In this document: piece by piece, positions 4,701 to 49,888 of the stretch
Numbering within the stretch: position 1 is the first letter of the stretch
Layout: every line of letters begins with the position of its first letter
DNA from: Cirrosporium novae-zelandiae
Lineage: Eukaryota
Assembly: GCA_026023565.1 (NCBI GenBank)
Contig: JAPETS010000015.1
Span: 62,001 to 126,000 of the forward strand
Direction: 5' to 3'
Length of the DNA: 64,000 bases
Notes under the pieces: generated by a model
The model's input: the letters and a program-made list of their open reading frames with translations, nothing else
Database searches by the model: none
Told to the model about the DNA's origin: nothing
Made by a program: the position numbers and the translations under genes

Positions 4701-7700
4701 AATTAAAATAATATTTAAAAAATTTATAAAATTAATTAAAATTAAAAAAAAATTGAGTTTTTTTTTGAATATATATAAACAAAACGATTTAAATAAATTT
4801 TTAAATTTTAAAAATATTTAACGGAAATAAAAAATATTAAAATATTATAAATTTAAAAACCGAAATCCGATATCGGCGATTTATATAAAAAACGGGAGAA
4901 TAGCGGTAAAAATCCAAAATAAAAAATCTTTTATATAAAAACGAATTTTCCCGTTATTTTTAAAAAACCCCGAATTTTAATTTTCGATAAATAAAATATT
5001 CGTTTAATAATTATCCGAAAAAACGGTACGAAAAACGTTATATATATAAAATATAAATAAAATTTTAAAATATAATAGAATTTAATTTAAAATATTACGT
5101 ATATTATAATAATAAAATTTTAATAAAATAATAAAAATAATCTAATATTATTTTTTATTAAAATATTATTGGACGTAATAAAAATATATTGAAAAAATAT
5201 TATTATTTAAATATAAAAAAACTGATAAAATATTAATTCAAAATTATAAAATAATAAATTTATTATATTATTTAAATAAAATAATCGAAGATATTATAAT
5301 TAGCGTATTAATAAATATATACGAAAATCTAAATAAATTATATAAAAACTAATTTAAATCGAAATATAATCAAAATATAATCGATATATTTACGTATTTA
5401 ATATATTAAATAAATAAAAATTTTAATTAAAAATAAATAATTTATATTTTATTTATAAACGTTAAAAAAACTTTTAATTATATATTACGATTCAGATTAA
5501 TATAATATTTAAAATAATTAATTTTATAATTTAATAAAACGTTAAATTAATAATCGACGGAGAAATACAATGCCGAATTAATATAAAAACAGGGGTACTG
5601 TAAAAATCGTTTATATCCCTAATATTATTTTTAATATATTGCAGCGGGTTATTGGCAGCCGTAAAATAAACAGTTTTTAAAATCAAAATTTTATTATTCG
5701 TAAACGACGTAAATTTCTGAACCATTTATATAAATAATAAATAAATCTAGAAAATTATTTAATAAATAACGAAAATAACGGTTCAATAAAAAAAAATAAA
5801 TTAAAATTTAACATTTAAAAAACTGAAATTATAATTTTTTCTAAATTATAAAAATATTAAATTTCAATAAATATTAAATCGAAAATTGAAATCGATAATT
5901 ATTTAATGGAATATAAAAAAAATTACGTACGGTAATTAAATATATAATTAGACCCGAAATTTAATTTTTAAATTTATTATATTTAGCGTTTAATTTTATT
6001 TAAACGCGCGGAAAAGGTAATTAAATATATATATTATCGAAACGGATTATTTACGGGATTTATATATTAAATAATCGTAACGATTATAATATTAATTTAT
6101 ATACACGGATATAAAATCTAATAAAAAAAACAAATTGGATATTAAATAGAATTTTAAAAATTATTAAATAAATTTACGAAATTAATAATCTGGGTTTATA
6201 AAATAATTTTTATAAAAACAGTTATATAGAAAATTTATATATATTCCGTAAATATAATATTAAATACCGCGTAAACAAAATACGGGTTTTGGTATTTTTA
6301 AAAAATCGAAAGAAATTTAACGAATCTAATATTATTTATAATATTACAAATAAAAAACGTAAATATTTAATTAAAAATATAACCGCTGAAAACTTTTTAA
6401 TAAATTTAAAAAATTAAAAAAAATACGTTAAATTAATATTTAATTATAACGACAATCTAAAAAATAATAAATCCGAATTTTAAAATCGAAAAAATTCTGA
6501 TAATTCAAAAAACTAGATTTTTAAAAATAATAATAATATTTCTAGAATAATAGATTTTCAGCGAGACGTTTACGTAGAGCTGAAAAAATACGTATTAATC
6601 GGACGGGTTTAAATTAGAAAATCGCAAACTAAAGGCGGGAGTAATCTAAAAAACAGCGGAAAAAACCCCGTGGACAATACGGAAATACTATTTCGGTCAA
6701 AATAAGAAGATATTCGATATAGAATTTTAGGGGGCGTAAACGGCTCTAGAAATAGTGATCAAAATATACCTAAATAATTATTAAACCCCCGGAAAAAAAT
6801 AATAATATTATTTAATTCGCAAACGATTATCAAATAAATCGAAAAAAAAGAATTAAAAAAAATTAAATAATCGTATAAAAAATATATAAATATACCAAAT
6901 ATCTAATAAATCAAAAAACGAAAATTATTATTAAATAAATTCTAAAATATTATAAAATATTAAAAAACGAAATAATAAATTAAACGGCTAAAATAAACGT
7001 AACGTTAAAAAATAATAAAAAAATTAAATAAATTTCGTTAATCTATATAACCCGTAATACAACCGAAAAACGGATTATAAAAACGTATAATTAATTATAT
7101 AATTAAAAAATAAAAAAATTAATCGATAAGTTTTATTAAATATATCTAAAATATAAAAAAAAATCGGGTATTAAAATATACGATTTAAAAAATAATAAAT
7201 AAATTTTATTAATTAAAAACGGGGTACGCCGCTACTAAAGATTATATATATCGTACGAAAATTATTATTATCCCAGAATATTAGTAATACGAGATTATAT
7301 ATCAAAATATTTTTTATTTGATATTAATATACCCGCGCTAAAAAACGGCTAGAGCCCGTTTACAGGAAATAATAAAAAAATAAAAAAAAACGATAATCTA
7401 ATATAATTAATAAAAGAAATCTAATTTTTATATTAAAAAACCGAAGATTTTTAAAAAATTAAATACGTTTTTTAAATAATACGGAAATAACAAAATCTCA
7501 ATTCTGGATTAAACGCGACAAAAAAATTACAAAATTCAGATACCGAAATAATACTAAAAATTATTCGATTAAATAAATTAAATGATTTTAAAAAATCAAA
7601 AAAAAATCAAAAATTATATAACCGAATTAAAAAAATTAATTTTTATTATTTTAATTAAAAATAAACCTGAAAAAAAATATAAAAAAATTTTAAAATTTTT

Positions 7701-7770
7701 AAATAAAATTTATTATAGTTTTTAAACAATATATAAATATAAAACAATAAATAATTATTATTATTATAAT
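1800..7770 (+). mobile_element. Tad1-like LINE retrotransposon, RIP-inactivated, copy A
   Basis: From 5589 the + strand reads TGVL*KSFISLILFLIY...LFVNDV, which reverts by transitions to the LINE RT motifs TGVPQGSPVSPILF...FVDD. About 6590-6750 reads Y*SDGFK...EIFDIEF (RNase H W-S-D-G-S-K and E-x-F-D-A-E). Ends in an (ATT)n tail near 7750. Collinear with 21,070-25,250. Left boundary approximate. Confidence 0.85.
2965..3334. mobile_element. ~370 bp short element with terminal inverted repeats (MITE or solo LTR), nested in LINE copy A
   Basis: Starts TATTATGGTGGAGT and ends ACTCCACCCCAATA (inverted). Homologous over its full length to 9735-10106. The paralogous LINE site near 21,965 lacks it. 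Confidence 0.8.
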
Positions 7771-8700
7771 CTCCGTTTTTTAAATATCGAATTCTAATTT
7801 TTTTTTATTGAACCGCCGTTTTCGTTATTTATTAAATAGTTTTTCGGGTTTGTTTATTATCTATATAGGTGGTCGAGAAATTCACGTCATTCACGAATAA
7901 TAGAATTTTGATTTTAAAAACTGTATATTCTATAGCTGCGAATAGCCCGCTGCAATATATTAGGAATAATATTAGGGATATAAACGATTTTTACGGTACC
8001 TCCGTTTTTATATTGATTCGGGATTATATTTCTCCGTTGATTATTAATTCGATATTTCGTTAAATTATAAAATTAATTATTTATTTAATAATATTTTTAT
8101 CGATTTTTAATTATTTTAAATATTATATTAATTTGAATTATAATGTATAATTAAACGTCTTTTTAATATTTATAAATAAAATATAAATTATTTATTTTTA
8201 ATTAAATCTGTTTTTTATTCGATATATTAAATATATAAACGTATTAATTATATTTCGATTACGTTTCGATCTAAATTAGTTTTTATATAATTTATTTAAA
8301 TATTCGTATATATTCGTTAACGTATTAATTATAATTTTTTCGATTATTTTGTTTATAATAATAATTATTTATTGTTTTATATTTATATATCGTTTAGAAA
8401 TTATAACGGATTTTATTTAAAAATTTTAAAATTTTTTTATATTCTTTTTGGGATTTATTTTTAATTAAAATAATAGGGATGAATTTTTTTGATTCGATTA
8501 TATAAATTTTTTTTTCGGTTTTTTAGTATTATTTGATTTATTTAACTGGATAATTTTTAACGTTATTTTAATATTCGAATTTTATAAATAAATTTATTCG
8601 TATTTATTTTCGATTTTTAATTTTTATATTTTATATATATATTTATCCCGTTTTTTTATTACGGATGTAATTTTTATTTAATACCCGATTTGTTTAACTT
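7770..8700 (-). mobile_element. Inverted fragments of the same LINE (RT core, then 3' end)
   Basis: 7770-8370 is the reverse complement of about 5260-5830; its minus strand reads TEVP*KS, the RIP form of TGVPQGS. About 8370-8700 is the reverse complement of the LINE 3' end. Confidence 0.8.
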
Positions 8701-8759
8701 TTGTTTTTCTTATATCTGTTATAAAGGAAGAGAAATAATATATTAAAAAAGGGTTCTAT

Positions 8760-11700
8760 CACAAAAAAAAGAAATAGAATATTCAAAAAAATCGTTATAT
8801 TTAAAAATCGAGAACGGAATAAAAATACAAAAATAATATGACGTAATACCGATAATTTATAGAAAAAAAAAGGTTAAATAAAAAATTTATATAAAAAATT
8901 AAAAAAAAAAATTTTCAGTTTTATATTATATAAAAATATTATTATTTTAATATCTTAAAAATTTTTTTTTATGAAAAAAAAAATTAATTTAAATAACGAA
9001 TAAACGATTATACGAATATTAAAAAATTTTTAATTCTAATAATAATTCGAAAAATAAAATACGTTTATATATATTTAATTGAACGATATAAAAAATATAG
9101 AAAAAAAAAATTTAAAAAACGAAAAAAAAAACGAATAATATAAAAATTATAATAATAAATAAATTCATATTAAAAAAAAATATATAATAAAAATATAAAA
9201 CGAATTAAAAAAAATACGGATAATTATCGAAATAAAAAAAACAACGTAAAAAAAACAACGAAATAATAACGAAATAAAATAACGAAAAAAAATAAAAAAA
9301 ATAAATAACGATAATAATAATTATAAAAAAAAAATTTATAAAATTAAAAATCGGAAAAAATACGTTTATTTATTAGAATTATAAAAAACCGGGATATTTA
9401 TTACAATAATATTAAGTATTAAAAAAAATATTTAAAAAAAAATAAACGATTTAAAAAAATCTAATAAATTTATTAAATAATTTCGGAAAATAAAATTTTT
9501 ATAATCGCCGAAACGTTTATAAATAGAAAAATAATAATTAAAATAAAAATATAAATATTATCAAAAAAAAACCGAAAATATTAATTAATTTAAAAATAGA
9601 GAAAAATTATATATTATAACGGCTCGTTAAATAATAAAAAATAGAAAGAAACGAAGAATTATTAATAAAATTAATAAAAAAAAGTAATTATTTATAAAGA
9701 ATATATATTACGATTATATATAATAAATTTAATATATTATGGTGGAGTAAATGGGTATGCCCACTTATCCCTATATAGCCTCCTCCCTAAAAAACAATAT
9801 AGTTTCTTTTTCTAAGGGATATAAGGATAAGCGAGTGTCCAAAATTCAGGGATATATTCTGGATCATCTTTTTTTTTTCAATTTCTTTTTCAATTTTTCT
9901 ATATTTTTTATTACTGAGGAAATAATAATTAAATAAAAATTAATTATTATTATATGTTTATATAATTATTACTATAGGAATAGTATTCGTATTTATCGAC
10001 GATTATTATAGTTATAAAAACTATTTTATAGTTTGGTTTATTTGTTGTTCCTATGACTTGAAAGTACGTATAATCCATGAGCATACTGATATATTCCACC
10101 ACAACGGCATTTATATATTATAAAATCCGAACATTTTTAATATATAATAGACCCGTTTAGATATAATTTAGCGATAAAATATTAAACGATATAATCGAAA
10201 TAAATAATAATATAAAAAACAATTTATTAGAACGAATAATAAAAAATTTATTCGAATTATTATTTAAAAATACATATAATTAAAAATTTTAGAATATTAT
10301 AAAATTAATTAACGAATATAATAATAAATATATTGGAAACAAATAGAAATTATTCAAATAACGGGTATTAAAATATATATATAGAAAAAAATATTTATAT
10401 TTCCGGTTTTTCCGCAACAAAAATTATAAAAGAATTATAAATAAATAAAACGTAAAAAATAAAATAATAAAATATTTATACAACGAAAATAATTATAAAA
10501 ATAAAGAAACTATTTTCTATAAAATTATAAAATGATTTTTTTAGAAAAACCTATATAAAAACGTTAAAAATTTTATTAAAAATTATAATTTATGTTAACG
10601 ACGCCGTTAATTTAGAATCGACAAAAAATTATATTTTATATATATATATATAAATTTCTAATAAAAAATAGACAATCGATATTATTTATATATTTTAATA
10701 ATAAAATAAAAAATATCTAATATTAATTAAAAACGATTTTAATAAATAAAAACAATAAAAATATTAAATAAAATAATAATTATGAATATAACTGATTTTA
10801 TATAAACCGATATATTTTATAAATATAAAATCTCGATAAATCTAATATTCGATATTAAAAAAAAATATAAAAATAATAATAAAATAATTAAATAAATATT
10901 ATTTTATAATTAAACGACGAAATATATTAATATATTATTTATAATCGAATAAAATAATCGAATAAAATTATTAATTTATAATAAATAGATTAACTAAATT
11001 AGATTTTATAAAAAAAAAAAAAATATAGAATATATTTAAAATATTATAAATAAATAGAACGATAACAAAAAGATTTATTAAATATATTTTATTTTTTATT
11101 AAAATTACCGACCAAATTCTATTATTTATAAATTTCGATATTCCAATATAATTTATATTATTTTAGAACGAAATAATTAATATAATAAATTTATTAATAA
11201 TATATATTAAATAATAATAACGATAAAAAAAAATATCGAAAAAACCCGATAATATCTAAAAAAATACTATATAAAAAATAAAAATTAATAAAAAAAAATA
11301 TTAGAATAATAAATATAATAATAAATAAAACGAGGATTTAAAAATATAATTTGAAAAAAATATATAATTATAATTAAATATATAATTTAATTCGCATTAA
11401 TAATAAAATATAAATCTATAAATTAAAAAAAAATATAATATTAAATAAATAATTAATAAATAAACGAATCTAATAATTAAAAAACGATGATTTTTAAAAA
11501 AAAAAAGAGTTAATTTATATATTAAAATATATATTTTAGAACGCGCCAGAAATACGGAATATAAAAAAGTTTTTTAATATAAAAAATTATTAATACGGCC
11601 GGAAAATTAAAGATTTTATCGAAATTTTGTTTTAAAAAATTTATTCTAGAATTTAATACGAAAGATTATTTTTATAAATTTATTTTAAAATTTATTTTTA

Positions 11701-37929: not shown

Positions 37930-39178
37930 GGTAGCATCGGATGATAGGGATGATTACCACCATGTTAGCCCGTAGTTTGGTAGGATGGCTGCCGAAAGGG
38001 CATTCAGAAACCGAAAATAAACACTATTAGTGATGATTTTGCTCGGTTAGACTGAGTGTATAACTGATGACTGCAATCCATCTGATATGAATTATTCGTA
38101 TATGTTGAACTTCTTCCTTCCATGTGTTGACCCAGGCTGTTAGGGGGAAAAGGTTCACCATAGGTTTATGGTAAGTTGTAACATATCAGATGGTTATAAT
38201 GTTGATATGAGGGATCAGTTGGGGATGGTCGGCAAACATCCTATAAAAATGATAAATGAATTAAATGAACCATAGATATAGAAATAATAATTACAAGTAG
38301 TACTTATCCAGTGAGGGAGTTGATGAGACGAAGTTCAAGTGCAACGGTCTCGCATGTCGGCACAGCTTTCCCCAGATTCCGAGTGCGGGGTAAAAGGGTG
38401 GACCAAACCTAAATAGGTAGTCGGGATTCGCCATTGGCCGGGGGTGCCGACGGAGAAAGGTAGGGGTGTGAACAGGGGTGTGGGTAAAATGTGGGCAGGA
38501 TGTGGGCAGGTCTGGAGGCAGGTGCCACTTGTGCCACTCGTGTATCTCGGATCCATTGGGTCAATTGGACCAATTCATGTATCCAACTCTGGGCATCTCG
38601 GGCAACTCTGGGCGAATTACGCAGGTCACTGGACTTTAGTGTGGTGTGACTAGAGGTCGTGCGTTTCCTTTGTTAGAGTGAAGCTTTCATGCCATTCCCT
38701 TGTTGAGGAGGAGTTATGATCAGCTATGCCCAGCTATACCCAGCTATTCCCTCTGCTCTGAGTAATATCCCTCATTGCTTGAGGAGAAGGGATCCGTGGG
38801 ACCCGTGGGACCCCCGCTTCCGAAATAGCCTTCTTGTCTTGTACTCCTTGTTTGCTTATCCCAACTACTTTCTAGCCTAATTGTCAATTGATGATGAGCA
38901 AGTCACCCGTCACGAGATGAGACGTCTCCCCTTCCTCAAATACCAACCGACCGTACCTGATCTACCTCTGATCTTGCATCTCTCACAGTAGACAGACAAA
39001 TCAATATTCCATCGGCTATTCATCCTCTTTAGTATCACACCTTCTTCGTCAAGTCTCTTCATCTCACTTCAAGCATAAGTGAGAAGTTACCATTAAACAG
39101 TTCTTCCGTCCACGTCCATTTCAACTCGACCTTGGCTTCATCCTCCTTGCTAGTAGGATAGCGAAATATCATCACATC

Positions 39179-40089
39179 ATGGCGACAGCAACATCAGAAT
39201 CCACCGCAGCAGATCTCACCAAGGTCGACTCAGCCGTCGCCGGTCTGTCCATCTCCCCCCCAAAAGACAGTACCAAGGGCAGCAAGAAAACCAAGGCACA
39301 AAAGGAGCACAAGGAGCCTCCTAAGAAGGAACGGAAAACTAGTACAGACATTGGAGTCTGGAATATCAATGACTTAGGCAAGTTGAGCAAATCATCCCTT
39401 GACCTGCATGACTGTTGGTTATTTAGACATGGGTTAATGCTAACGTGTCAAATAGAAAAGGAAGGGAAAGAGCTACTAATAGCAAAAGAAACACAAAAAC
39501 TGAACTGGTATGTTATCCGAGCAAATTAGAATGATACACCTTCAACCCTACCATAGTCTCATCATCTTCCTTGATACATCTTGATATTCATTCGTCATCC
39601 TTTCTGTCATCCATTACATATCTTCCAGCTCACTAATCTTTTCTCCTAACAGGAAGCTCAACACATCGCCTGCATCATTAGATGAAAAAGATACATTGAA
39701 AAAGTGTCTCACGACACCACCCGTCAAAAAAATTGACCTTCACTTCCCGCTAGGCCTCGAAGTCACCGCACGGAATCTCAAGGGTGTAACGATAAAGGAT
39801 GCGCTAGATGCCATCTACAAGCAATTCAAGAAGAAGGTACGCCATGATTATCAGAAGCATATTTGTTGTTTTGTCATTGATGTTCAACACCTTGATTTGA
39901 CTTAACTTGAGCCTCACTGACAAAATCTCTCACGATATTTAGGCCGATGACGAACTCGAGAACCCCATCCTTGCTGGATTCGAATGGGATAAAGAAGAGT
40001 CGTGGACAAGGCTGGTCGTACATCAAAAGAAAGAGGGTGCTCCCGTCAGCTCTAAAAAATCTAAGAAAAACAAAGGCGGCGATGAATAG
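39179..40089 (+). CDS. Small Lys-rich protein of unknown function, 4 exons
   Basis: Splices cleanly to ...GVWNINDLEKEGKELLIAKETQKLNWKLNTSP...KKIDLHFPLGLEVTARNLKGVTIKDALDAI...LAGFEWDKEESWTRLVVHQKKEG...GGDE*. Long CT-rich leader. Looks like a conserved fungal hypothetical protein (from memory, not searched). Confidence 0.85.
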
Positions 40090-40689
40090 AGTTCATCTCA
40101 AGCTCTACTTAATGCGTCCCCTCTCAACTGACCCAACTCGACTGAGAGTCTCGGCGCTTGCTTGCACTTGCCCTTCATTCATGTACTCTATGCATAATTA
40201 TGACTTTTTGAGATGGTGATGGTGATGGAAACGAACATTTTTCAAACTCCTCTTTCCTTATCCAAGTCCTTATCGAGCGATCAGAAACGGCGGAATACAA
40301 CACTAGAATGGGAACGATCCGGTCAGATGATGCTGCGGAACCATTTGCTAGGTTAGCAAGGATAGATCAGTAGACTAGGTAACTTTGGAGCCCAATGAGT
40401 GCTGCTTTGAAGCTTGAAATTTAAATTATATCAAGACGAGAGAGAATCAATTTTTTTTCCTGTTAGTGTTGCTTTAATTACGGTAGACGAGACTACCTCA
40501 AAACTAATCACATGCTAGTGTAAGGATTGCTACTGTGGTAGTTATGCAGGAAAGAACCTCACAAGAGTTCTGCGGATTATAATTAATTATCCCGTATTTT
40601 CGATCCTATTCCGCACAAGTTACAATCTAGTTAGAGATCACGTCTGTCCTATCGATAGTGTCCAGTTTTATGACCTAGAGTTCAGTGTT

Positions 40690-41554: not shown

Positions 41555-42674
41555 CTATCGATTTGTGAACACGAGAGCCCTGATTTCTATGCTCTCTCTT
41601 GGGGGGGCGTGTAGAGGAACATCGGGCAAAATAAAAGAAGCATGAGGACAGCCTATTCAGATATCAGTATGATAACAAGAGAAATAAAGCCGGTATTATT
41701 CTCGCGCTCTTACACTTGGCTTTGCGATGATTATCAGAATCGAATATCTTGAGCAAGATAGCTTCTTCTGGTCGCTGATCTCGAAGATAATACCATTTGT
41801 ACTCTTTGCTGGGGAGCATCCAAGTGGTTTCACCCCGGTAATCACGGGTAATGAAGTCTGCAAAAACACAATCACGCCTAGCCACTGTACTACCATCACA
41901 AAGTGCCAGAGGTGCGTCTACAATCGTATGGTAGAGGGGTCTCCAAAAGCTACCCAGACGTCAGAAGGGGAAAACAGAACCCTTGCGGGGTATAATCACT
42001 AACTTGATGATCCTTACTCGCCCTTTAAGAAGCTCGTCGGCCTCAGATCCTAAGTGATGGCGTACTCTACGTGCTGTTCCTAGCGGGCTTTGGTCTAAGT
42101 TTCATCAACAAGATAAAGACTCTAGAAGTGATGAAGGATTCAAGACATACCAATGTGTGCTTTCATCGCAGGGGCATATGGCTGAGTGCCATCTCTGAGA
42201 TTCTGATTTAGAGGGGCTGTAACAGATTCATTACGCCGCAACTACAACCCATCAGACGAGCCGTCTTATTGCTCCAGCAACGATGTACCTTACATGCCAA
42301 TCAAAAATGAACATTCTGTCAACTTCATCCAAATTATTTTTTAGCAACGGCTTAACGATTTCTGGTATGTATTGACCTTCAACTTGCTCTCGGTCGTAAA
42401 AGGCCGAGAAGTCAGTATTCGTGTTGCGAAAACAAAAGCCGTGACTGTCGAGTTGAAATAACGACTCTTCACCACGAACATCACTGACGAGTTCCTCTTG
42501 TTCCCTTATCTGAAATTCCAAGTTTGTCATATTCTCGCCTTCCCTAGAAGCCCCCGACAACAATTCGTAGGGTTTCTCTTTCTCATACTTGTCCAACCAT
42601 TTCAAATATGTGAATGCCGCCTTGACATCCTTCTTCGCCATTTTCTGGCCGTCTTTGCTTCGAACGAGGTCCAT
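41555..42674 (-). CDS. AsaB/CmcJ-like non-heme iron hydroxylase/desaturase, 5 exons
   Basis: YEKEKPY, TNLEF, DVRG..FQLDSHGF, FIFDW.LR, AHID (HxD across a splice), RVRIINFWRPL, PLALCDGST, KWYYL.DQ.PEE..LLKIFDS, CPHASF, RESIEIRALVF. Start at 42,674 or 42,641. Confidence 0.88.
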
Positions 42675-43082
42675 CAGTTGCTTTAAGTGCTTTCAAGAAT
42701 CAACCAATATCCATAATCCCCCACGGCTAAATTCTAGATGACCTTGGGTTCAAATGTACTGGATCTTCGCGTTCGGGTGCCCATGTACCGTATATGCATG
42801 TGTCACAGCCTAATTGGAAATAAATACGTCAGTATGCAGCCATGAGGTATTATTGCTGCCGACCCTCCACGAGCTCAATTCAGACCAGGATTACGTGGAG
42901 TATTGGAGAGATGAGGGGGAATGATACAATGAGGCTTATTTCTTATCAGTGGCCTTGAAGATATAAGGTAGGATAGGTATCGAACCCCAAGTATAGAGTA
43001 GTACGGCTATACAACCTTTAATAATAAAATCTTCTTCTGGTTTATATTACTTTATAATCCTTCGATTCCTTGTCCTTTTAAA

Positions 43083-43301
43083 ATGTCCACCAATCAAGCC
43101 CAGATCCCCAATAAGGTCCAAACTGAAGATACAGCAGAAAGCTGGGCTGCGGCACTGGAAAATTCCAACTCCGATGACGCCCGCGATCATCCCTGGACAA
43201 AACATGTGAAATCTCCAGCTGAGGTGGAAAAGGAAAACCATCAGGAGGAAACCATTCATATGGACAACAAAGGCGGAGGTGGTGGCACTGTTGCCGGATA
43301 G
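43083..43301 (+). CDS. 72-aa acidic peptide ending in KGGGGGTVAG
   Basis: AAAATGTCC start context, pyrimidine-rich leader, TATA-like ATATAA near 42,961, coding-like composition against AT-richer flanks. No known family recognised. Confidence 0.6.
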   Translation: MSTNQAQIPNKVQTEDTAESWAAALENSNSDDARDHPWTKHVKSPAEVEKENHQEETIHMDNKGGGGGTVAG

Positions 43302-43762
43302 CGGACCGACATGCAAATTGTGATTTCTCCGCAAATATACATTGTCTCTAATAACGATATAGTAGGCAATCCACGGTCACTTCTACCTGAGATGAAATGG
43401 TTAGCGATTACGGATGATTGTCTTGACGTCTCTACATTGAAATTGAGGAGAAATATGAGAATGCTTTGACCCTCATGACAAATGAGGTATAACGATGGAT
43501 ATTTTTAAGGTATTTCTAGAGTTGCCGTAAGAGAGTCAAATCTCACAATGCAATTCTATACATCTGACCTTGTATTTGATTACCTCCTCGCTTCTGAGAG
43601 CATCCCTCCAGTCCTTGAAATAGTAAAAGTCGTTTGCTTCAAATAGCCCCTGCATTATGAATTCATTAGAACAACGCCCTCGGCGAGCACTGTCCATTAT
43701 AATGAAAAGAGAAACGATTGCGGTGCTACGTTCACCACCTTGTATTGCTCAACCGATTTTGG

Positions 43763-45607
43763 TCAATTTTTGTCCAGCATGATTAGCGTATGCATTGTAG
43801 CATAAATTTGGGAACGATCCACTAGACGACATAGTAAGCGACGGAGTATTTGAATTTTCAATTTTGGGATTAACATTACAGTCAATATACTATTTGCCCC
43901 AGAATTCTTCTGTTTATGGAAAAATTCAACAAGTTCCGAATTTGGATCCCATGCCCACTGTAATCCCTCTACTGGACCATCTTTCCTGGCCTTAAATTTG
44001 ATCAAATAATATCGAGATTGATAATCTGCGATATACCGACCTCGTTTTGCAGCTTCATTGTATGTCATAAGCCAAGAGAACGTATTATACTGATAGTGTT
44101 GAAGGTTATACACCTCGTCTGGTAGGCCCTGGAAGGACATGCCGAGGCCGCCATTGTGTTTGAAAATGTTAATCGAGAAGTTCTTGGTGGAATTTAGATA
44201 CTGTCCTGCATACTCTGAAAGTCGTCTATGACTTGTCCCTGGTATTCGCTCCTTGTCTAATTCTAGCTTAAGAGCTTCCATGTGGTGGAGGGTTCTCCAG
44301 GAAAATTCGGTTGCAAGTGCAACATAGTCATTTTTCACGGTCATGTCACACACATGCTGGAGCAAAAGCTGACCAACAAAATCTGCAGTATCATTAGGAG
44401 CAAGAGAATTCATCAAAACCACCACAGCTGTCTCTGTCTCTAGAGACATGTACACGCAAGTAGTACTACCGGGCATGCTGCCGTTGTGATAGATAATAAG
44501 CTGAGAATCCGAAAATCCGCCAACGATAGGCTCCCCTCCAATGAGTGGGTTGTTTGAAATTAGTCCAAGCTGCCCTGGAAGTTGGGTTCGAGCCCATCCA
44601 GCAGCATAACCATGTTCGTGAAGAAAGGGTCCCGGAAACCTAGCATGATTGCTCAATAGCGTGCGGCAGTGTTTAAAGATCGAATCTGGCATAGAATCTT
44701 TACGGCATTTGAACTGTTCCACTGACGCATGCATGAAGGCTTTGTACAAGCATAGGAGATCATCCAAAGTACTCTTCACCCCCCCGGCAGCTTCCATAAT
44801 TGTGCCCCTTCTGATCTGTGGTCGGCGAATCTCGAAGGGAGACAAGTCGTCTAGTACAACGTATGACCTAGCTTGGTTGGTATCTTCAGCGTCCCATTCA
44901 CAGCTTGTTCTTGTCATTCCTAAGGGCTTAAAAATTCTATCGCGAAGCAGTTTAGAGAGTTCGGTGCCTGTGACCTTTTCCAGGACCATTCCAATAATAT
45001 CATAACCAAAGTTGTTGTACAAGAAAGATGTACGAAATGGTAGCCAAGGCCGTAAGGAATAAAAAGCGCTGAGACTTTGGCCTCTATCAATGAGCAACGT
45101 GTTATGGGCAGATAGCCAAATTGCGTCGAAATTGGAGATGCCTGTACGATGTGAGAGCAGGTCCATAATAGTGGTATTCTCTTGGACTTCATTGTCGCAA
45201 CTGCTAAATTCGGGAAGCACGGACTTTATTGGCGTGTGAAATTCCAGCTTTCCCTCATCCACCATTATTCCGACAAGCATTGAAACAATAGCTTTGGTCA
45301 TTGAGTTGATTGAATATCTTGTCTTGCCATCTGGCATTAGCTTCGAGGAGACGTCACGATATCCAAAGTTTGCGGCAAATACGGTATCTCCATGATGCAT
45401 AACGCCGAGGGTGCAGTCTGGGGCACCAGAAACAGTGAGTATTTCGGTGATTGTATGCCTCAAGGCATTGAGACGTTGTCTTGTAGATTCATGATTATTG
45501 GTAGCAGTCCTGGGAACATTTCATGAGTACCGTTTTGTAAAGAGACGCTACAGCTTCATCAAAGGGCCAAATGAAAACTTGGAATTATAAAAGGAAACAT
45601 CATACAT
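43763..45607 (-). CDS. Serine beta-lactamase-like hydrolase (peptidase S12/AmpC-like) with DUF3471-like C-terminal domain
   Basis: SMTK (SxxK), DLLSHRTG, FLYNN (YxN), IFKPLGMTRT, YHNGS (HxG), LSEYAGQYLN. Start inferred across a 96-nt intron (45,605-45,510). Confidence 0.9.
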
Positions 45608-46545
45608 GATAAAGAGACCTGTTTAACTTTATCAACCTGTGAAGGAGAGGAAAATGTAAATTTTTAGAGCCCATTAAGATACAGAATCTCTAGGGAACAT
45701 GATGGCAGACTTGAGGCAGAGAGATATGAAACCGAGCTGCATTGGGCCTTGGACGGGATAAATATTAATTACTTCGGGTTCTCGCTGAAAGAACGGGCTG
45801 GAGTGCAAGTGTGACCAACAACTTAAGCATGCCTTAGATTCTGAAGTATTTATGTATATACCCCGAAGGCACGTAGGAAGACACATAAGCTATTCTTTAT
45901 TTGAGGTTTAATCCTAAGTAGCTCGGCTTCATCGTTGGATGATGTTTACCCCGAAGATATAGTCCCTTTGTCTTAGGAATAGCCTCGTTATTTATGCAGA
46001 GTCTTCTTGCATAATTAAATTACCGTAACATCAACTTCTCGGGTATTCATAAACATCCTCCCTGACTGGAACAACATCAAAGGACATCCATACCTCTTGT
46101 TTATAGACGTGGGATAATATAACTGGTTTTCTATTGCTACTTTTTACCGATGCTTTTGGTAGGCACGGCACGATTGTTCGCTTTGGGCTTCCCCTCGAGA
46201 CGGGCGTATGACAAGCATTAAACCAAAGAAACCTGATCCTCGCACACCCTCTCATGTCCAATATTATTTTCTAACCAGTACTTTCCATCTCTTGATTTGG
46301 CCATCAATGAGGCTTCAGTTCACTGTCCATCTTGAATGCCCTTTTGATATGTAATCCATAGCCTCATATTGAAAATATGTCATTCTATGTTGCCCAGAAT
46401 AATGAGAACTACCAAGGGTATCATGTTGGTATCTTGGCTTTTGCTAGCTTTGGGATGCATTTATATCCAAAATCAGTGACCCCTTTAATTGACGTTCTTT
46501 GTTGTTGCAGCAGCAAGACCAATATATCCGACATGTGAATTGGAA

Positions 46546-49500
46546 ATGGCACCCAATTCAAGCTTGCATAGTAACCCAGAAGATATTTGGAACCAAATGC
46601 TTTGCAATTATCGACACAGGCTTAAAGGAAAACGGTATGCTGATCTACTTAAACAACTCGAGTACACATCATTTCATAGTTTGTTGGAGATGACAAGCCA
46701 AAAAAACGACAGTGAAAGAGTAACACGAACTATTCGTTCTCTCACTCCGGCCCTCGTTCACTTAGACACGTTCTCAATAGCCATTTCGGATGCGGTGCAA
46801 GGCTGTCCAGATCCAGTTTCGTTTCTTTGGGGATTTATTAGGGCGATGCTTATCGTAAGTCCCTGCGATCGTTATTCACGATAAATAACTAAAAGCTGGG
46901 AATCCTATTAGCTTTGCCCTATTCTTTCCAATTTGAGGCATAGGACACTGAATGGGATACCGTGTTTACTAATAACTATGATTCAATAGTGCGCTCACGA
47001 GTACGGGTCAATCCTAGAGACCATCCGAGACATGCTTCGTGATATTACCCTTACTATGACCAAATTTAATCGTTACATCGAGCTTCTACCAATGAGCCCA
47101 AATCTTCATGAGTATCTAAGACTTCTATATGATGACTATGTGTGCTTTTGTATTGATGCAATAAAATTTTTACGACGAAAACCTATTCGTGGGCCATTCC
47201 TCCCTTGAACTTGTGATGTTCATTATTCGATTGACTAAATTACAGTCTCTTTAATCTCGACGCCATTTAGTACGATAAAATATGTTTTTGAATCTAGGAA
47301 AGGGTCTATAATAAGACACGTGAAGGAATTTGAGGATGAGACTCGTATTACAATTGATGAAGTGGTGGTGGGGCGTCTTAGAGACATCCACGAAAGGCTC
47401 CCTATGCAACTTGCCAAGGATGTTGAAGAAAGATTGTATGAAGTTCCGTTTTCACGCAATGCATTTTTTACCGGTCGTGATAGTGATCTCGAAAACCTTC
47501 ACTTCAAGTTAAGTCATTCTCAGTTCAAAGGGGCCGAGAGCCTCAAAACCTGTCTTATACATAGCATGGGCGGAGTTGGGAAGACACAGATGGCCTTGGA
47601 ATATTCCTATAGATATCGAGACTGGTATGATTACATATTCTGGCTCGCGGCAGAAAATGGCCCTCAGTTGGCCCAGAATTTTGCGAACATTGCGACTTTG
47701 CTCCAGGAAAAGCTATTACTGAGAATAGCGTCAGATTCTCCAAGCCCGGCTCAGGGAATTCAGGCCGTGAGGCGTTGGCTTGAACGAACCAAAAAACACT
47801 GGCTATTGATCTATGACAATGTAGAAAGCTGGACAGATATTACTCCTTACTGGCCATGCAGTACTCATGGGGCTATCATTCTAACTAGCCAACATTCACA
47901 TCTAGCCCAAGTGACGGGAGGCTCGGAAATTTCTCTTACGCCTCTACCAGCGAATGAGGGTGCTGTACTTCTTTTAAGACATCTCCGACGCTTCGTGAGT
48001 GATAATGCATCCATTAAGGACATGGCTGAAGCCAAAGGGATTTCAATCATCCTGGGCGGCTTGCCAATTGCTATATCTCACATGGCAGGATATATCGACA
48101 TGTCACAGTTGTCGTTGCCGGAATTCTCGACCATGTATGAGAAGCGCGAACAGACGCAGAGGATCTGGTCCTGTAATCACATGAACGCAACATATCAATA
48201 TGACAAGCGACTAGAAACCGTGTGGGATATTGCAATGAAAGAGCTATCAAACGATGCCCTTGATATTATTTACCTGCTAGCTATGCTCAATCCAGACCTG
48301 ATCCAAGAAGATCTATTATTTGACTCGTCCGAAGATAACTCCTCGATCAAAGGGTATGTATCTAACATGTCCGTTTGTTCTTTACCCTAAAGCCGCCATC
48401 GGCTAACATGAAATAAGGAGATATTATGACATAATTGCCAGCTTAGGAGATCGCCAACTCGTAAAACGAGCATCCACTCCCTCTGGGACCTTCCTATCGA
48501 TTCATCGAGCTCTTCAGCTAAATATTCTCCACAAGCTCGACCAGAACCTAGAAACGCGGCAAATTATTTTCGAAAGGGCATTACGGCTTGTTCGTAGGGG
48601 TTTCCCAAGACAATCTGCTATCCAAGTCCCGTCAAACGAAAACTGGCAAACAAACGAGTTCTACCTTCCGCATGTTCTAAGCTTGAAGCTATTCTTCGAA
48701 CGATCCTCTCCTCCTGTGAAAGCTACAATGGTCTTGGCAGAACTACTAGGAGATGTTGGAAACTACATGTGGGAGCGGGCTTTCTACAAGCAAGGCCTAG
48801 AAACTCTCGAATTAGCAGAAAGGATCTGTGAAAACCTATCCTCAGCGGAGGATGTGATGGAACAATCCATGATCTTCACAATCATCGGCGTTCTGAGCGA
48901 AGAAGTCGGTATAAGTGGTAGACAGAAAGGGTTAAATCGGTGCACGAAATCACTAGTATTTAGAAGACACCACGTGGAATCCAATGAATCTGCCGGCCCC
49001 GAGGAAAGGGTCCTCCTCTCAAATGCATGGAATGATGTTGCATGCGGACTGATCGAACATGAGAGCTACGACCAAGCCGAAGCCTACATTCAAAGGTCGC
49101 TGGCCGTCAAAAACGAAATCCCCATGGTTGAGGATGGCGTTGCATACTTCTGCTATGCTGAAAACTACAAAAACCTTTCCATAATCCGTCGCGCCCAGAA
49201 TCGGTTATCCGAAGCCGTTGAAATTTCAGCTCAAGCCGTTCGCCTGATTGAAGATGGTACTGGCACCGAATGTGCCTCCGTCTGGGCACTGCGACACCAT
49301 AAAGCATGCGCAATCTTCCAAAACGGCGATATTGAAGGTGCACTGAAACTTCATGAACAAGTTCTGAAAGGGAGGATGGAAATTTTTGGTGAGCATCAGG
49401 TTCACACCCTCAATAGTGCATATGCGTGCGCGGTGGCGTATCAGACTTTAGGAAATTTCATCAAGGCATCGTTAGTCTATCTACCCTCACCTGTCACGTT

Positions 49501-49888
49501 CAAAACTACTCGAGAAGAATTCTACTGAAATCACCTTAGGAGTTTACTGCTGGAATGTCTTGCAGCAAGCACAGAAGCGGAATGGCCTGAAGAGTGTGTG
49601 GCTAGAGCGAAGTATCGTTTGGCACAAGTGATGCGCCTACAATACGGCGGCTCCTCTAAAATTGAGGCCGATGAGCTGCAGGCGCAAGCACGAGCCCTCC
49701 GAGAGAAATTGGATCCGGGAAACTTTTATTACTATCAAAATATTCACAGCGAAACAGACTTGTCTCCCAAGTTTGAGATGGCGTTGTTTGATCACTTAGT
49801 CTCGTTTGAAGCTGGCCGAACTTTCGTTGGTCAGATCAAGGCTTCTGCTCCTCTTTCAATAGTGGAGGATGCGCTGCCGCCGTTGTGA
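46546..49888 (+). CDS. Fungal NLR-like STAND protein: helical N-terminal domain + NB-ARC + TPR repeats, 5 exons
   Basis: N-terminal LDTFSIAISDAVQ..PDPVSFLWG (Goodbye/DUF7708-like), VPFSRNAFFTGRD, HSMGGVGKTQMALEY (Walker A), WLLIYDNVE (Walker B), IILTSQ, LGGLPIAI (GLPL), TPR-like C-terminal helices. Canonical introns near 46,855-46,989, 47,190-47,245, 48,354-48,417 and 49,471-49,539. Confidence 0.9.

Follow-up and report, generated by a model that had tools for sequence, protein, structure and literature searches.

Bacterial peptide-processing systems, as described by Kaur, Burroughs, Iyer and Aravind (2020, PMC7159879), combine a peptidase and a modifying enzyme with a small, rapidly diverging protein in which the C-terminal peptide shows greater conservation; they are always coupled to an AP-ATPase carrying tetratricopeptide repeats (TPRs), and a role as toxin or signal has been predicted for the peptide after processing. 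Here, we analyzed a 64,000-nt stretch of DNA (hereafter, the window) from the filamentous ascomycete Cirrosporium novae-zelandiae that carries four neighboring genes, encoding a CmcJ/NvfI-family oxygenase, a small hydrophilic protein, a serine hydrolase of the S12/penicillin-binding protein (PBP) fold and a NOD-like receptor (NLR) of the NB-ARC-TPR type. As the same genes are found together in other, distantly related fungi, their grouping is more than chance, and they are likely to constitute a single, so far undescribed unit for the maturation or sensing of a small peptide. The four-gene cluster is well supported, and its mechanism is what we infer. It is about as likely as not that the four genes represent one instance of an old, patchily retained Pezizomycotina cluster that couples ribosomal-peptide processing to an NLR.

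The bacterial AP-ATPase(NB-ARC)-TPR systems, including the FxSxx-COOH group, follow the same logic (PMC7159879): a small protein, a peptidase, a modifier and a nucleoside triphosphatase (NTPase) of the STAND class are encoded side by side. Their hallmark, a small diverging protein with a conserved terminal peptide next to an NB-ARC-TPR protein, is also found here, with the NLR linked in the window and in two further loci introduced below (L009 and L140). The individual parts differ, however. Where the bacterial systems employ a zincin metallopeptidase and a radical SAM/SPASM modifier, the window encodes an S12/PBP-fold serine enzyme, which is the cluster's only hydrolase, and a CmcJ/NvfI oxygenase; no radical SAM match was detected among the cluster open reading frames (ORFs) scanned. 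The tail motif is F-x-S-x-x in FxSxx-COOH systems and G-x-[ST]-[LV]-A-[AGS] here, with the window protein ending in T-V-A-G. In addition, the host is eukaryotic, and the vWA/VMAP or FtsH ternary core reported for the bacterial systems is absent. Among 79 truly bacterial CmcJ-like loci (80 minus L140), none showed an NLR or hydrolase neighbor. Since the bacterial AP-ATPase-coupled systems provide the closest described logic, we read the fungal cluster as NLR-coupled peptide processing.

Fungi themselves are known for NLR-related pairings such as PLP-1/SEC-9 and protease-NLR combinations with gasdermin, as well as for several classes of peptides that are synthesized ribosomally and modified post-translationally (RiPPs), namely dikaritins, borosins and amatoxins/MSDIN. 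Dikaritins, borosins and MSDIN peptides likewise have a short ribosomal precursor encoded beside tailoring enzymes. In contrast to these, the small protein described here has neither a signal peptide with Kex2-separated repeats nor a methyltransferase fusion, and its cluster includes an NLR; among the ORFs scanned, neither a prolyl oligopeptidase nor a DUF3328 protein was found. In fungal NLR-partner loci (NWD2/HET-S, PLP-1/SEC-9 and protease-NLR with gasdermin; see also PMC3321046 and PMC8915998), the NLR is likewise tightly and conservedly linked to its presumed partners, and the N-terminus of the window NLR belongs to the Goodbye-like/MLKL-related helical superfamily (PMC9815663). Unlike in HET-S/NWD2, the window NLR N-terminus and its neighbors have no amyloid motif in common, and in place of a pore-former, SNARE or gasdermin, the NLR is accompanied by two enzymes together with an unstructured small protein. 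Beta-lactamase-fold partners are unmentioned in the main texts of the fungal NLR literature searched, and we found no description of a fungal NLR linked to an enzyme of the beta-lactamase fold, an oxygenase of the CmcJ/AsaB type and a small protein, supplementary neighbor tables of NLR surveys aside.

Linkage of the NLR and hydrolase genes was evident in named fungal genomes. Querying 5.8 billion proteins with the NB-ARC exon yielded 190 matches among 7999 scored candidates, of which the best 120 are considered here. The closest relatives among the matches listed comprised five fungal clusters with 38-47% identity (Scytalidium lignicola, Aspergillus multicolor, A. transmontanensis, A. arachidicola and A. 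pseudotamarii), followed by bacterial NB-ARC-TPR proteins at about 30%. The best non-self match of the hydrolase was again a Scytalidium protein with an adjoining locus tag (g5473 versus g5472), and an Aspergillus section Flavi cluster came next. NLR and hydrolase carried consecutive GenBank accessions, on contigs identical in length, in all seven genomes for which both were looked up (Cirrosporium, S. lignicola, A. transmontanensis, A. novoparasiticus, A. parasiticus, A. arachidicola and A. pseudotamarii), and in each genome the best non-self matches of the two proteins were each other's partners. For A. multicolor, the eighth NLR-bearing genome, the hydrolase partner lay outside the looked-up proteins. 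Cirrosporium belongs to the Xylobotryomycetes and Scytalidium to the Leotiomycetes, and Aspergillus adds a third class, which we take to be the Eurotiomycetes. Pairwise identities of NLR and hydrolase were concordant (Mantel r = 0.985, reached by 2 of 5000 permutations). Collapsing near-identical Aspergillus sequences to six taxa gave r = 0.943 (7 of 720 permutations); at r = 0.94, the two proteins diverge in concert and not discordantly, the latter being the outcome named in the original prediction as speaking against a module.

Twenty oxygenase relatives were looked up, ten of them named, and none of these came from Scytalidium or the NLR-bearing Aspergillus species. In Ascobolus immersus RN42, a hydrolase relative (P0153) and an oxygenase relative (P0376) are each placed on a 489,351-bp contig, which suggests linkage of the two in an early-diverging Pezizomycotina class.

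Complementarily, metagenome contigs were scanned with an alignment of 13 hydrolases, giving 61 loci, many of them short or with distant hydrolases only. Using tblastn, an NLR relative was recovered in 2 of the 61 (L002 and L009) and an oxygenase relative in 3 (L001, L004 and L009). Partners were concentrated near the closest hydrolases: of six distinct loci with a hydrolase identity of 38% or more and a flank of 2 kb or longer, four contained one (L001, L002, L004 and L009, but not L011 and L035), compared to none of the six more distant groups with the same minimum flank. A further locus, L140, came from an oxygenase-anchored scan of prokaryote genome records that returned 80 CmcJ-like loci. 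L009 contains all four genes, with oxygenase, NLR and hydrolase within 11 kb, NLR and hydrolase head-to-head and the oxygenase on the other side of the NLR. Its proteins are 28-45% identical to those of the window, and their order and orientation have changed, a pattern typical of selection for clustering. The remaining loci hold subsets, namely hydrolase, small ORF and oxygenase (L004), hydrolase and oxygenase (L001), hydrolase and NLR (L002, again head-to-head) or an NLR relative, a 69-aa small ORF and oxygenase (L140). These partial loci are mostly cut by contig ends; those of L004 and L001 stop at the hydrolase 5' end, where the NLR would be expected. An oxygenase homolog lies at most 4 kb from the hydrolase or at most 6 kb from the NLR in L001, L004, L009 and L140. 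The most constant pairing is that of small ORF and oxygenase, followed by hydrolase and NLR.

Beyond the cluster, conservation ceased. Comparing the window from 27 to 64 kb with eight loci by tblastx, only oxygenase, NLR and hydrolase were conserved at E < 1e-4, and flanking genes varied between loci (SDR, HET-domain protein and others). The original prediction had proposed an undescribed module over chance juxtaposition, with conserved micro-synteny as a test, and the seven of seven genomes, the complete set in L009 and the subsets elsewhere support this. In quick trees with long branches, cluster-linked hydrolases and oxygenases were scattered across fungal subfamilies and formed no tight clade; such trees fit an old cluster with many losses, while gain versus loss is not settled by them. 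A bacterial origin of the whole cluster was also considered and rejected, with a hydrolase relative in none of the 80 CmcJ-like loci and an NLR relative in L140 only.

Several observations concern individual contigs. L140 (1-17067), labeled as part of a deltaproteobacterial metagenome-assembled genome (MAG), shows intron-like gaps in its oxygenase and NLR matches, genes of fungal type (DUF7580 and an NB-ARC-TPR NLR) and 49% G+C; it probably represents fungal DNA that was assigned to a bacterial MAG during binning. In L004, the group of hydrolase, small ORF and oxygenase is followed by a HET-domain gene (7443-9806) about 2 kb downstream. The NLR-hydrolase intergenic region of L009 (8103-8420) contains a tandem coding-like unit, MNRINLRLMALPNSTN, repeated in one frame, and a His-Pro-rich ORF on the opposite strand; these are probably simple repeats.

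The 72-aa product of the small ORF, an annotated protein in NCBI nr, is hydrophilic, with a central R-D-H-P-W-T, a Gly-rich tail and the C-terminus G-G-T-V-A-G. A word-indexed search of the 5.8 billion proteins for relatives of this ORF returned the self-match only. In contrast to the word-indexed search, lenient tblastn picked up one small ORF of 86 aa in L004 and another of 73 aa in L009, both with E = 0.006 in the small locus database. Smith-Waterman comparison with 5000 composition-preserving shuffles reached the observed score nine times for window-L004, never for window-L009 and twice for L004-L009, and all three pairwise alignments span one block, W-x7-...-[KD]-[ED]-[AT]-R-x-[QH]-P-W-[TK]. 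The L140 small ORF, in turn, bears E-R-S-Q-P-W-K-T. Overall, the small proteins are 69-86 aa long and 28-34% identical. Leave-one-out hidden Markov models (HMMs) run over 25,165 ORFs placed the left-out protein at the top non-training rank for the window and for L009 (both E = 2.2e-4) as well as for L004 (E = 1.6). Of 2497 ORFs with an ATG start and a length of 40-150 aa, exactly three, from the window, L009 and L140, carried the tail motif G-x-[ST]-[LV]-A-[AGS] within their last 16 residues; the 'Gly-tailed' terminus of the original prediction is thus a conserved feature in three of four family members. The distance between the small ORF and the oxygenase 5' end is 0.4-0.9 kb in each of the four loci; the small ORF is divergent in the window and in tandem, 0.5-0.9 kb upstream on the same strand, in L004, L009 and L140. 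Within the 630 bp upstream of the L001 oxygenase, up to the contig end, no recognizable small-ORF relative was found.

Codon usage of the window small ORF is gene-like by its score of 0.248 per codon, above 86 of 88 other small ORFs and at or above the real-exon range of 0.09-0.22. Taken together, the small ORFs of the window, L004, L009 and L140 make up a weak but significant homologous family as judged from their sequences, and the reading as a chance or orphan ORF was dropped after the tblastn, Smith-Waterman, leave-one-out HMM and motif results. The protein is predicted to be unstructured (pLDDT 0.40), and an ESM Atlas search with it gave no usable feature match, with all structural rows below TM 0.5. 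No amyloid-type motif common to the small protein and the NLR, hydrolase or oxygenase was found, and when it was aligned with NLR residues 1-260 by Smith-Waterman, 850 of 1000 shuffles scored at least as high.

These data also bear on a purely incidental arrangement, in which the genes would be neighbors through shared segment ancestry and chance and the small ORF would not be a real gene. The missing relatives in the word-indexed search and the multi-copy nature of all three large families in fungi are in line with such a scenario. We nevertheless disfavor it and consider it very improbable, since the genes recur jointly in three or more fungal classes, at protein identities of 28-51%, in altered order and orientation and with differing flanks, and since the small ORFs are significantly similar and have motifs in common, the window ORF also showing gene-like codon usage.

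The spliced coding sequence of the oxygenase comprises 858 nt and encodes 285 aa without internal stops. Scored exon by exon, two exons match the NCBIfam model NF041278 (CmcJ/NvfI) with 40.7 bits (profile 25-104) and 75.7 bits (profile 153-235), against a curated cut-off of 80 bits, and the 48 aa of the two middle exons exactly fill the profile gap in between. Its full-length closest relatives score 182-200 bits; one of them, P0265 (200 bits), is 44% identical to the window protein over 281 aa. These sequence matches assign the oxygenase to the CmcJ/NvfI family. In the same line, the metal-binding H-x-D ... H is present, with H-I-D across the exon 2/3 junction and the second His in the last exon, which also contains a RESIEIR block; both the H-x-D...H and the RESIE-R columns are kept in the alignment of relatives. 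Characterized CmcJ/NvfI enzymes are known to tailor small molecules inside polyketide synthase (PKS), non-ribosomal peptide synthetase (NRPS) or terpene clusters. The window oxygenase thus has the HMM family, H-x-D...H and RESIE-R block in common with the CmcJ/NvfI/AsaB oxygenases of secondary metabolism, but whereas those reside in backbone gene clusters, no backbone is conserved here and the constant neighbor is the small ORF. No terpene, PKS or NRPS backbone was present among the genes of the loci in ORF and domain scans.

The hydrolase (P0122, 591 aa as annotated, with an uncertain exact first exon) matches the Pfam families Beta-lactamase (PF00144; 167 bits, cut-off 27) and DUF3471 (PF11954; 52.5 bits, cut-off 29.3). 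The S-x-x-K, Y-x-N and H-x-G motifs (S79, K82, Y174, N176, H351 and G353) are invariant in 13 sequences. The protein failed all true beta-lactamase models, for example NCBIfam bla_class_C with 51 bits versus a cut-off of 415, and its nearest solved relatives by sequence are Pab87, LACTB, Flp, alkaline D-peptidase and ClbP. In the AlphaFold2 (AF2) model (pLDDT 70.6, pTM 0.73), the DUF3471 region is modeled as a beta-barrel, and Foldseek returned two-domain matches to Pab87, the DL-peptidase Lip3, the esterase IS11, the cyclases SurE and Ulm16, the D-aminopeptidase DAP and ClbP, with E-values from 4.8e-18 to 1e-13 over about 550 aligned columns. As most of these two-domain structural matches act on peptides, the hydrolase looks peptide-acting on the basis of its model. 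The parallel to SurE drawn in the original prediction is reflected in SurE ranking among the best structural matches. Fold, C-terminal beta-barrel and motif positions are common to the two-domain PBP-fold enzymes (the 'CubicO' peptidase Pab87, Lip3, SurE/Ulm16, DAP and ClbP), but sequence identity to the hydrolase is only 15-20%. Moreover, SurE-type cyclases need an NRPS thioester substrate, whereas there is no NRPS near the window hydrolase: no NRPS-sized ORF was found in the gene-bearing part of the window or among the scanned L004 and L009 ORFs. ClbP, in contrast to the window hydrolase, has a membrane domain.

The hydrolase gene model shows irregularities at both ends. At 43763-43900, the frame continues for about 45 residues beyond the end of the Scytalidium and Aspergillus orthologs with a low-confidence model; stop loss, an unrecognized intron or a real extension could each account for this. 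At 45520-45610, no in-frame ATG directly precedes the main exon: the annotation places a 10-codon first exon with a weak GTTTTC donor there, the alternative being a three-codon exon followed by a 42-nt intron. Some annotated relatives carry extra domains, namely an acetyltransferase (Xylaria flabelliformis), DJ-1/PfpI (Diaporthe eres) or a methyltransferase (Neonectria ditissima); these multi-domain proteins (P0151, P0154 and P0218) may be real fusions or merged neighbor genes.

The enzyme families raise the alternative that the unit serves to detoxify, catabolize or sense a small molecule or non-ribosomal peptide of foreign origin. The two enzymes would then act on a product of other microbes, for example a lipopeptide from bacteria, a peptide containing D-amino acids or a compound resembling beta-lactams, with the NLR as immune sensor of this compound or of what it is broken down to, and the small protein as accessory regulator or adaptor instead of substrate. 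NF041278 is named for CmcJ, a cephem-modifying enzyme, and includes other small-molecule tailoring enzymes. DAP and ClbP are among the structural neighbors of the hydrolase; Lip3, another fold match, cleaves lipopeptides according to PMC12903863; and fungal NLRs are viewed as immune receptors. However, this alternative leaves the constant pairing of small ORF and oxygenase, with its conserved motifs, unexplained, and the hydrolase fails every true beta-lactamase model. In addition, no obvious signal peptide was seen by eye on any of the proteins, so that all four would act in the cytosol. Overall, we consider a response to foreign compounds, and with it an adaptor role of the small protein, unlikely.

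For the NLR, splicing of five exons was modeled, and the product agrees exactly with the annotated protein P0002 of 1005 aa. NB-ARC (27-30 bits, cut-off 23.5), TPR_12 (39.8 bits), DUF7779 (33 bits) and DUF7708 (29.3 bits, cut-off 25) were detected, and the Walker A motif GGVGKT is intact. With NB-ARC, Walker A, TPR and an N-terminal effector-type domain, its sequence qualifies it as a fungal NB-ARC-TPR NLR; no tandem repeats were found in it. Against NF040586, the TPR protein of FxSxx-COOH systems, it scores 206 bits (E = 9e-61); this is below the cut-off of 300, and the NLR is therefore homologous to this family but not a member, which substantiates the NB-ARC-TPR parallel suggested beforehand. 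The N-terminal region appears to vary. The Aspergillus ortholog (P0005) shows a weak Goodbye match overlapping DUF7708, and the L140 NLR keeps NB-ARC-TPR with a different N-terminal region. Goodbye-like domains are described in PMC9815663 as MLKL-related helical bundles of open function. Complex prediction of the NLR TPR domain (residues 585-1005) with the small protein scored 0.00 in both runs and speaks neither for nor against an interaction.

Alternatively, the locus could be of the NLR-guardee or allorecognition (het-like) type, where the NLR would monitor the hydrolase or the small protein as its guardee or polymorphic partner, as with PLP-1/SEC-9, and the oxygenase would be a closely linked but unrelated passenger. 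The tight head-to-head arrangement of NLR and hydrolase in all loci with both, their concordant divergence in the Mantel analysis, the HET-domain gene near the L004 cluster and the accessory-region-like setting, beside an AT-rich block resembling the product of repeat-induced point mutation (RIP), are in agreement with this idea, and NLR/partner gene pairs are known in fungi (PMC3321046). In hydrolase-less L140, however, the oxygenase and small ORF accompany the NLR, so the hydrolase cannot be its sole partner. Furthermore, the NLR lacks the highly similar internal repeats seen in hypervariable allorecognition NLRs, and strict conservation of the catalytic motifs in the hydrolase argues for enzyme function over a decoy. 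We regard a guardee or allorecognition locus as improbable, and less credible than a response to foreign compounds.

Peptide processing coupled to the NLR, the reading we prefer, also faces several counterarguments. Among the matches listed, close NLR homologs occur in only 8 named genomes, and hydrolase relatives are far more widespread. Only one of the ten named oxygenase relatives, that of Ascobolus immersus, is found on a contig of the same length as that of a listed hydrolase relative; the one from Cadophora is not. The available flanks of L011, L035, L005-8, L012-14, L017, L018, L020/21 and L022 contain no partner, and the L140 contig and genome bin have no hydrolase ortholog, the best matches being 26-29% identical and on other contigs. 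The claim that the four genes form a unit holds for their recurrence across loci but not for strict membership, as L140 and the partner-less hydrolase relatives illustrate. With respect to the small protein, the L004 ORF lacks the C-terminal motif and reached a leave-one-out E of only 1.6, the L140 ORF was missed by the leave-one-out HMM among the 25,165 ORFs and is placed in the family by motifs and position only, and the motifs were defined post hoc from the sequences themselves. Neither a signal peptide nor a repeated core nor similarity to the NLR N-terminus was found in the small protein. Finally, IS11, among the best structural matches of the hydrolase, is an esterase; together with the small-molecule substrates known for CmcJ/NvfI enzymes, this makes a non-peptide substrate possible.

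The features of the locus are compiled in Table 1. The NLR and hydrolase are annotated as MAG hypothetical proteins M1834_001709 and M1834_001708 [Cirrosporium novae-zelandiae], respectively.

Table 1. Genes, exons and intergenic regions of the four-gene cluster in window coordinates
Feature	Position	Strand	Details and basis
CmcJ/NvfI (AsaB-like) family Fe(II)/2-oxoglutarate-type oxygenase gene	41555..42674	-	5 exons, 285 aa; splice sites read, NF041278
Oxygenase exons	42674-42294, 42202-42151, 42094-42004, 41949-41714, 41652-41555	-	Splice-site reading
Divergent intergenic region, oxygenase / small ORF, 408 bp	42675..43082	.	Between flanking gene ends
Gene of a small hydrophilic protein of 72 aa that is a candidate precursor or ligand peptide	43083..43301	+	ORF; relatives in L004, L009, L140
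S12/PBP-fold serine hydrolase with C-terminal DUF3471 beta-barrel domain	43763..45607	-	Pfam; 591 aa annotated, N-terminal mini-exon uncertain
Divergent intergenic region, hydrolase / NLR, about 0.94 kb	45608..46545	.	Between flanking gene ends
NLR: DUF7708 (Goodbye-like) - NB-ARC - DUF7779 - TPR, 1005 aa	46546..49888	+	5 exons, equals annotated protein

Coordinates and open frames agree with the four intact-looking genes in two head-to-head pairs that had been described from the raw sequence. The flanks, too, were as described, with a BYE1-like neighbor (PHD, TFIIS_M and SPOC domains) and a DUF6699 relic, and in keeping with the reported absence of a PKS or NRPS backbone, no ORF of PKS or NRPS size was found within 27-64 kb. 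ORF fragments at 39083-40219, including the DUF6699 match at 39585-39905 (33 bits), are probably what had been termed a pseudogene relic. Positions 1-27000 of the window have 10-22% G+C and lack long ORFs, with genes beginning at about 28 kb; this AT-rich block looks like RIP-degraded repeats. As it extends up to 27,000, the cluster is situated about 14 kb from a repeat-rich compartment.

By analogy to the bacterial systems, the substrate would be the small, unstructured, fast-evolving protein with its R-x-[QH]-P-W-[TK] block and, in most members, the tail motif. The CmcJ/NvfI-family oxygenase encoded beside it would oxidize this protein, and the cytosolic S12/PBP-fold hydrolase with its DUF3471 barrel would trim, cleave or transpeptidate it. 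Because the tail is conserved, one may speculate that the hydrolase acts at the small-residue C-terminus in a carboxypeptidase- or transpeptidase-like manner. The NB-ARC-TPR NLR would then sense the matured peptide, or the state of the pathway, via its TPR domain and signal through a swappable N-terminal domain, here the DUF7708/Goodbye-like helical domain. The substrate role of the small protein, the action of each enzyme on it and the response of the NLR to the peptide are all inferred.

More broadly, filamentous ascomycetes may possess a cytosolic system of ancient origin that oxidizes an endogenous ribosomal peptide with a CmcJ/NvfI-type oxygenase, trims or transpeptidates it with a PBP-fold enzyme and has the product, or the state of the pathway, read by an NB-ARC-TPR NLR, a generalization that we put forward tentatively and consider rather doubtful as it stands. 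We know of no ligand of any non-allorecognition fungal NLR. If true, the system would be to eukaryotes what the STAND-coupled peptide-processing conflict systems are to bacteria. It would add a new class to the RiPP-like systems of fungi, in which a maturase of the PBP fold acts on a ribosomal peptide, and would provide, for the first time in fungi, an NLR with a candidate peptide ligand that is dedicated to it and made by enzymes. A new family of small proteins, missed by word-indexed searches, would be defined as well. The pairing of peptide processing with AP-ATPase-TPR proteins known from bacteria would thereby be extended to eukaryotes with non-homologous enzymes, which would imply either that the NLR part is of deep ancestry or that assembly was convergent. 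For most fungal NLRs, function is stated to be unknown in PMC13449251; by tying a single lineage of NLRs to two enzymes and a small protein, the conserved cluster offers a testable hypothesis of ligand generation.

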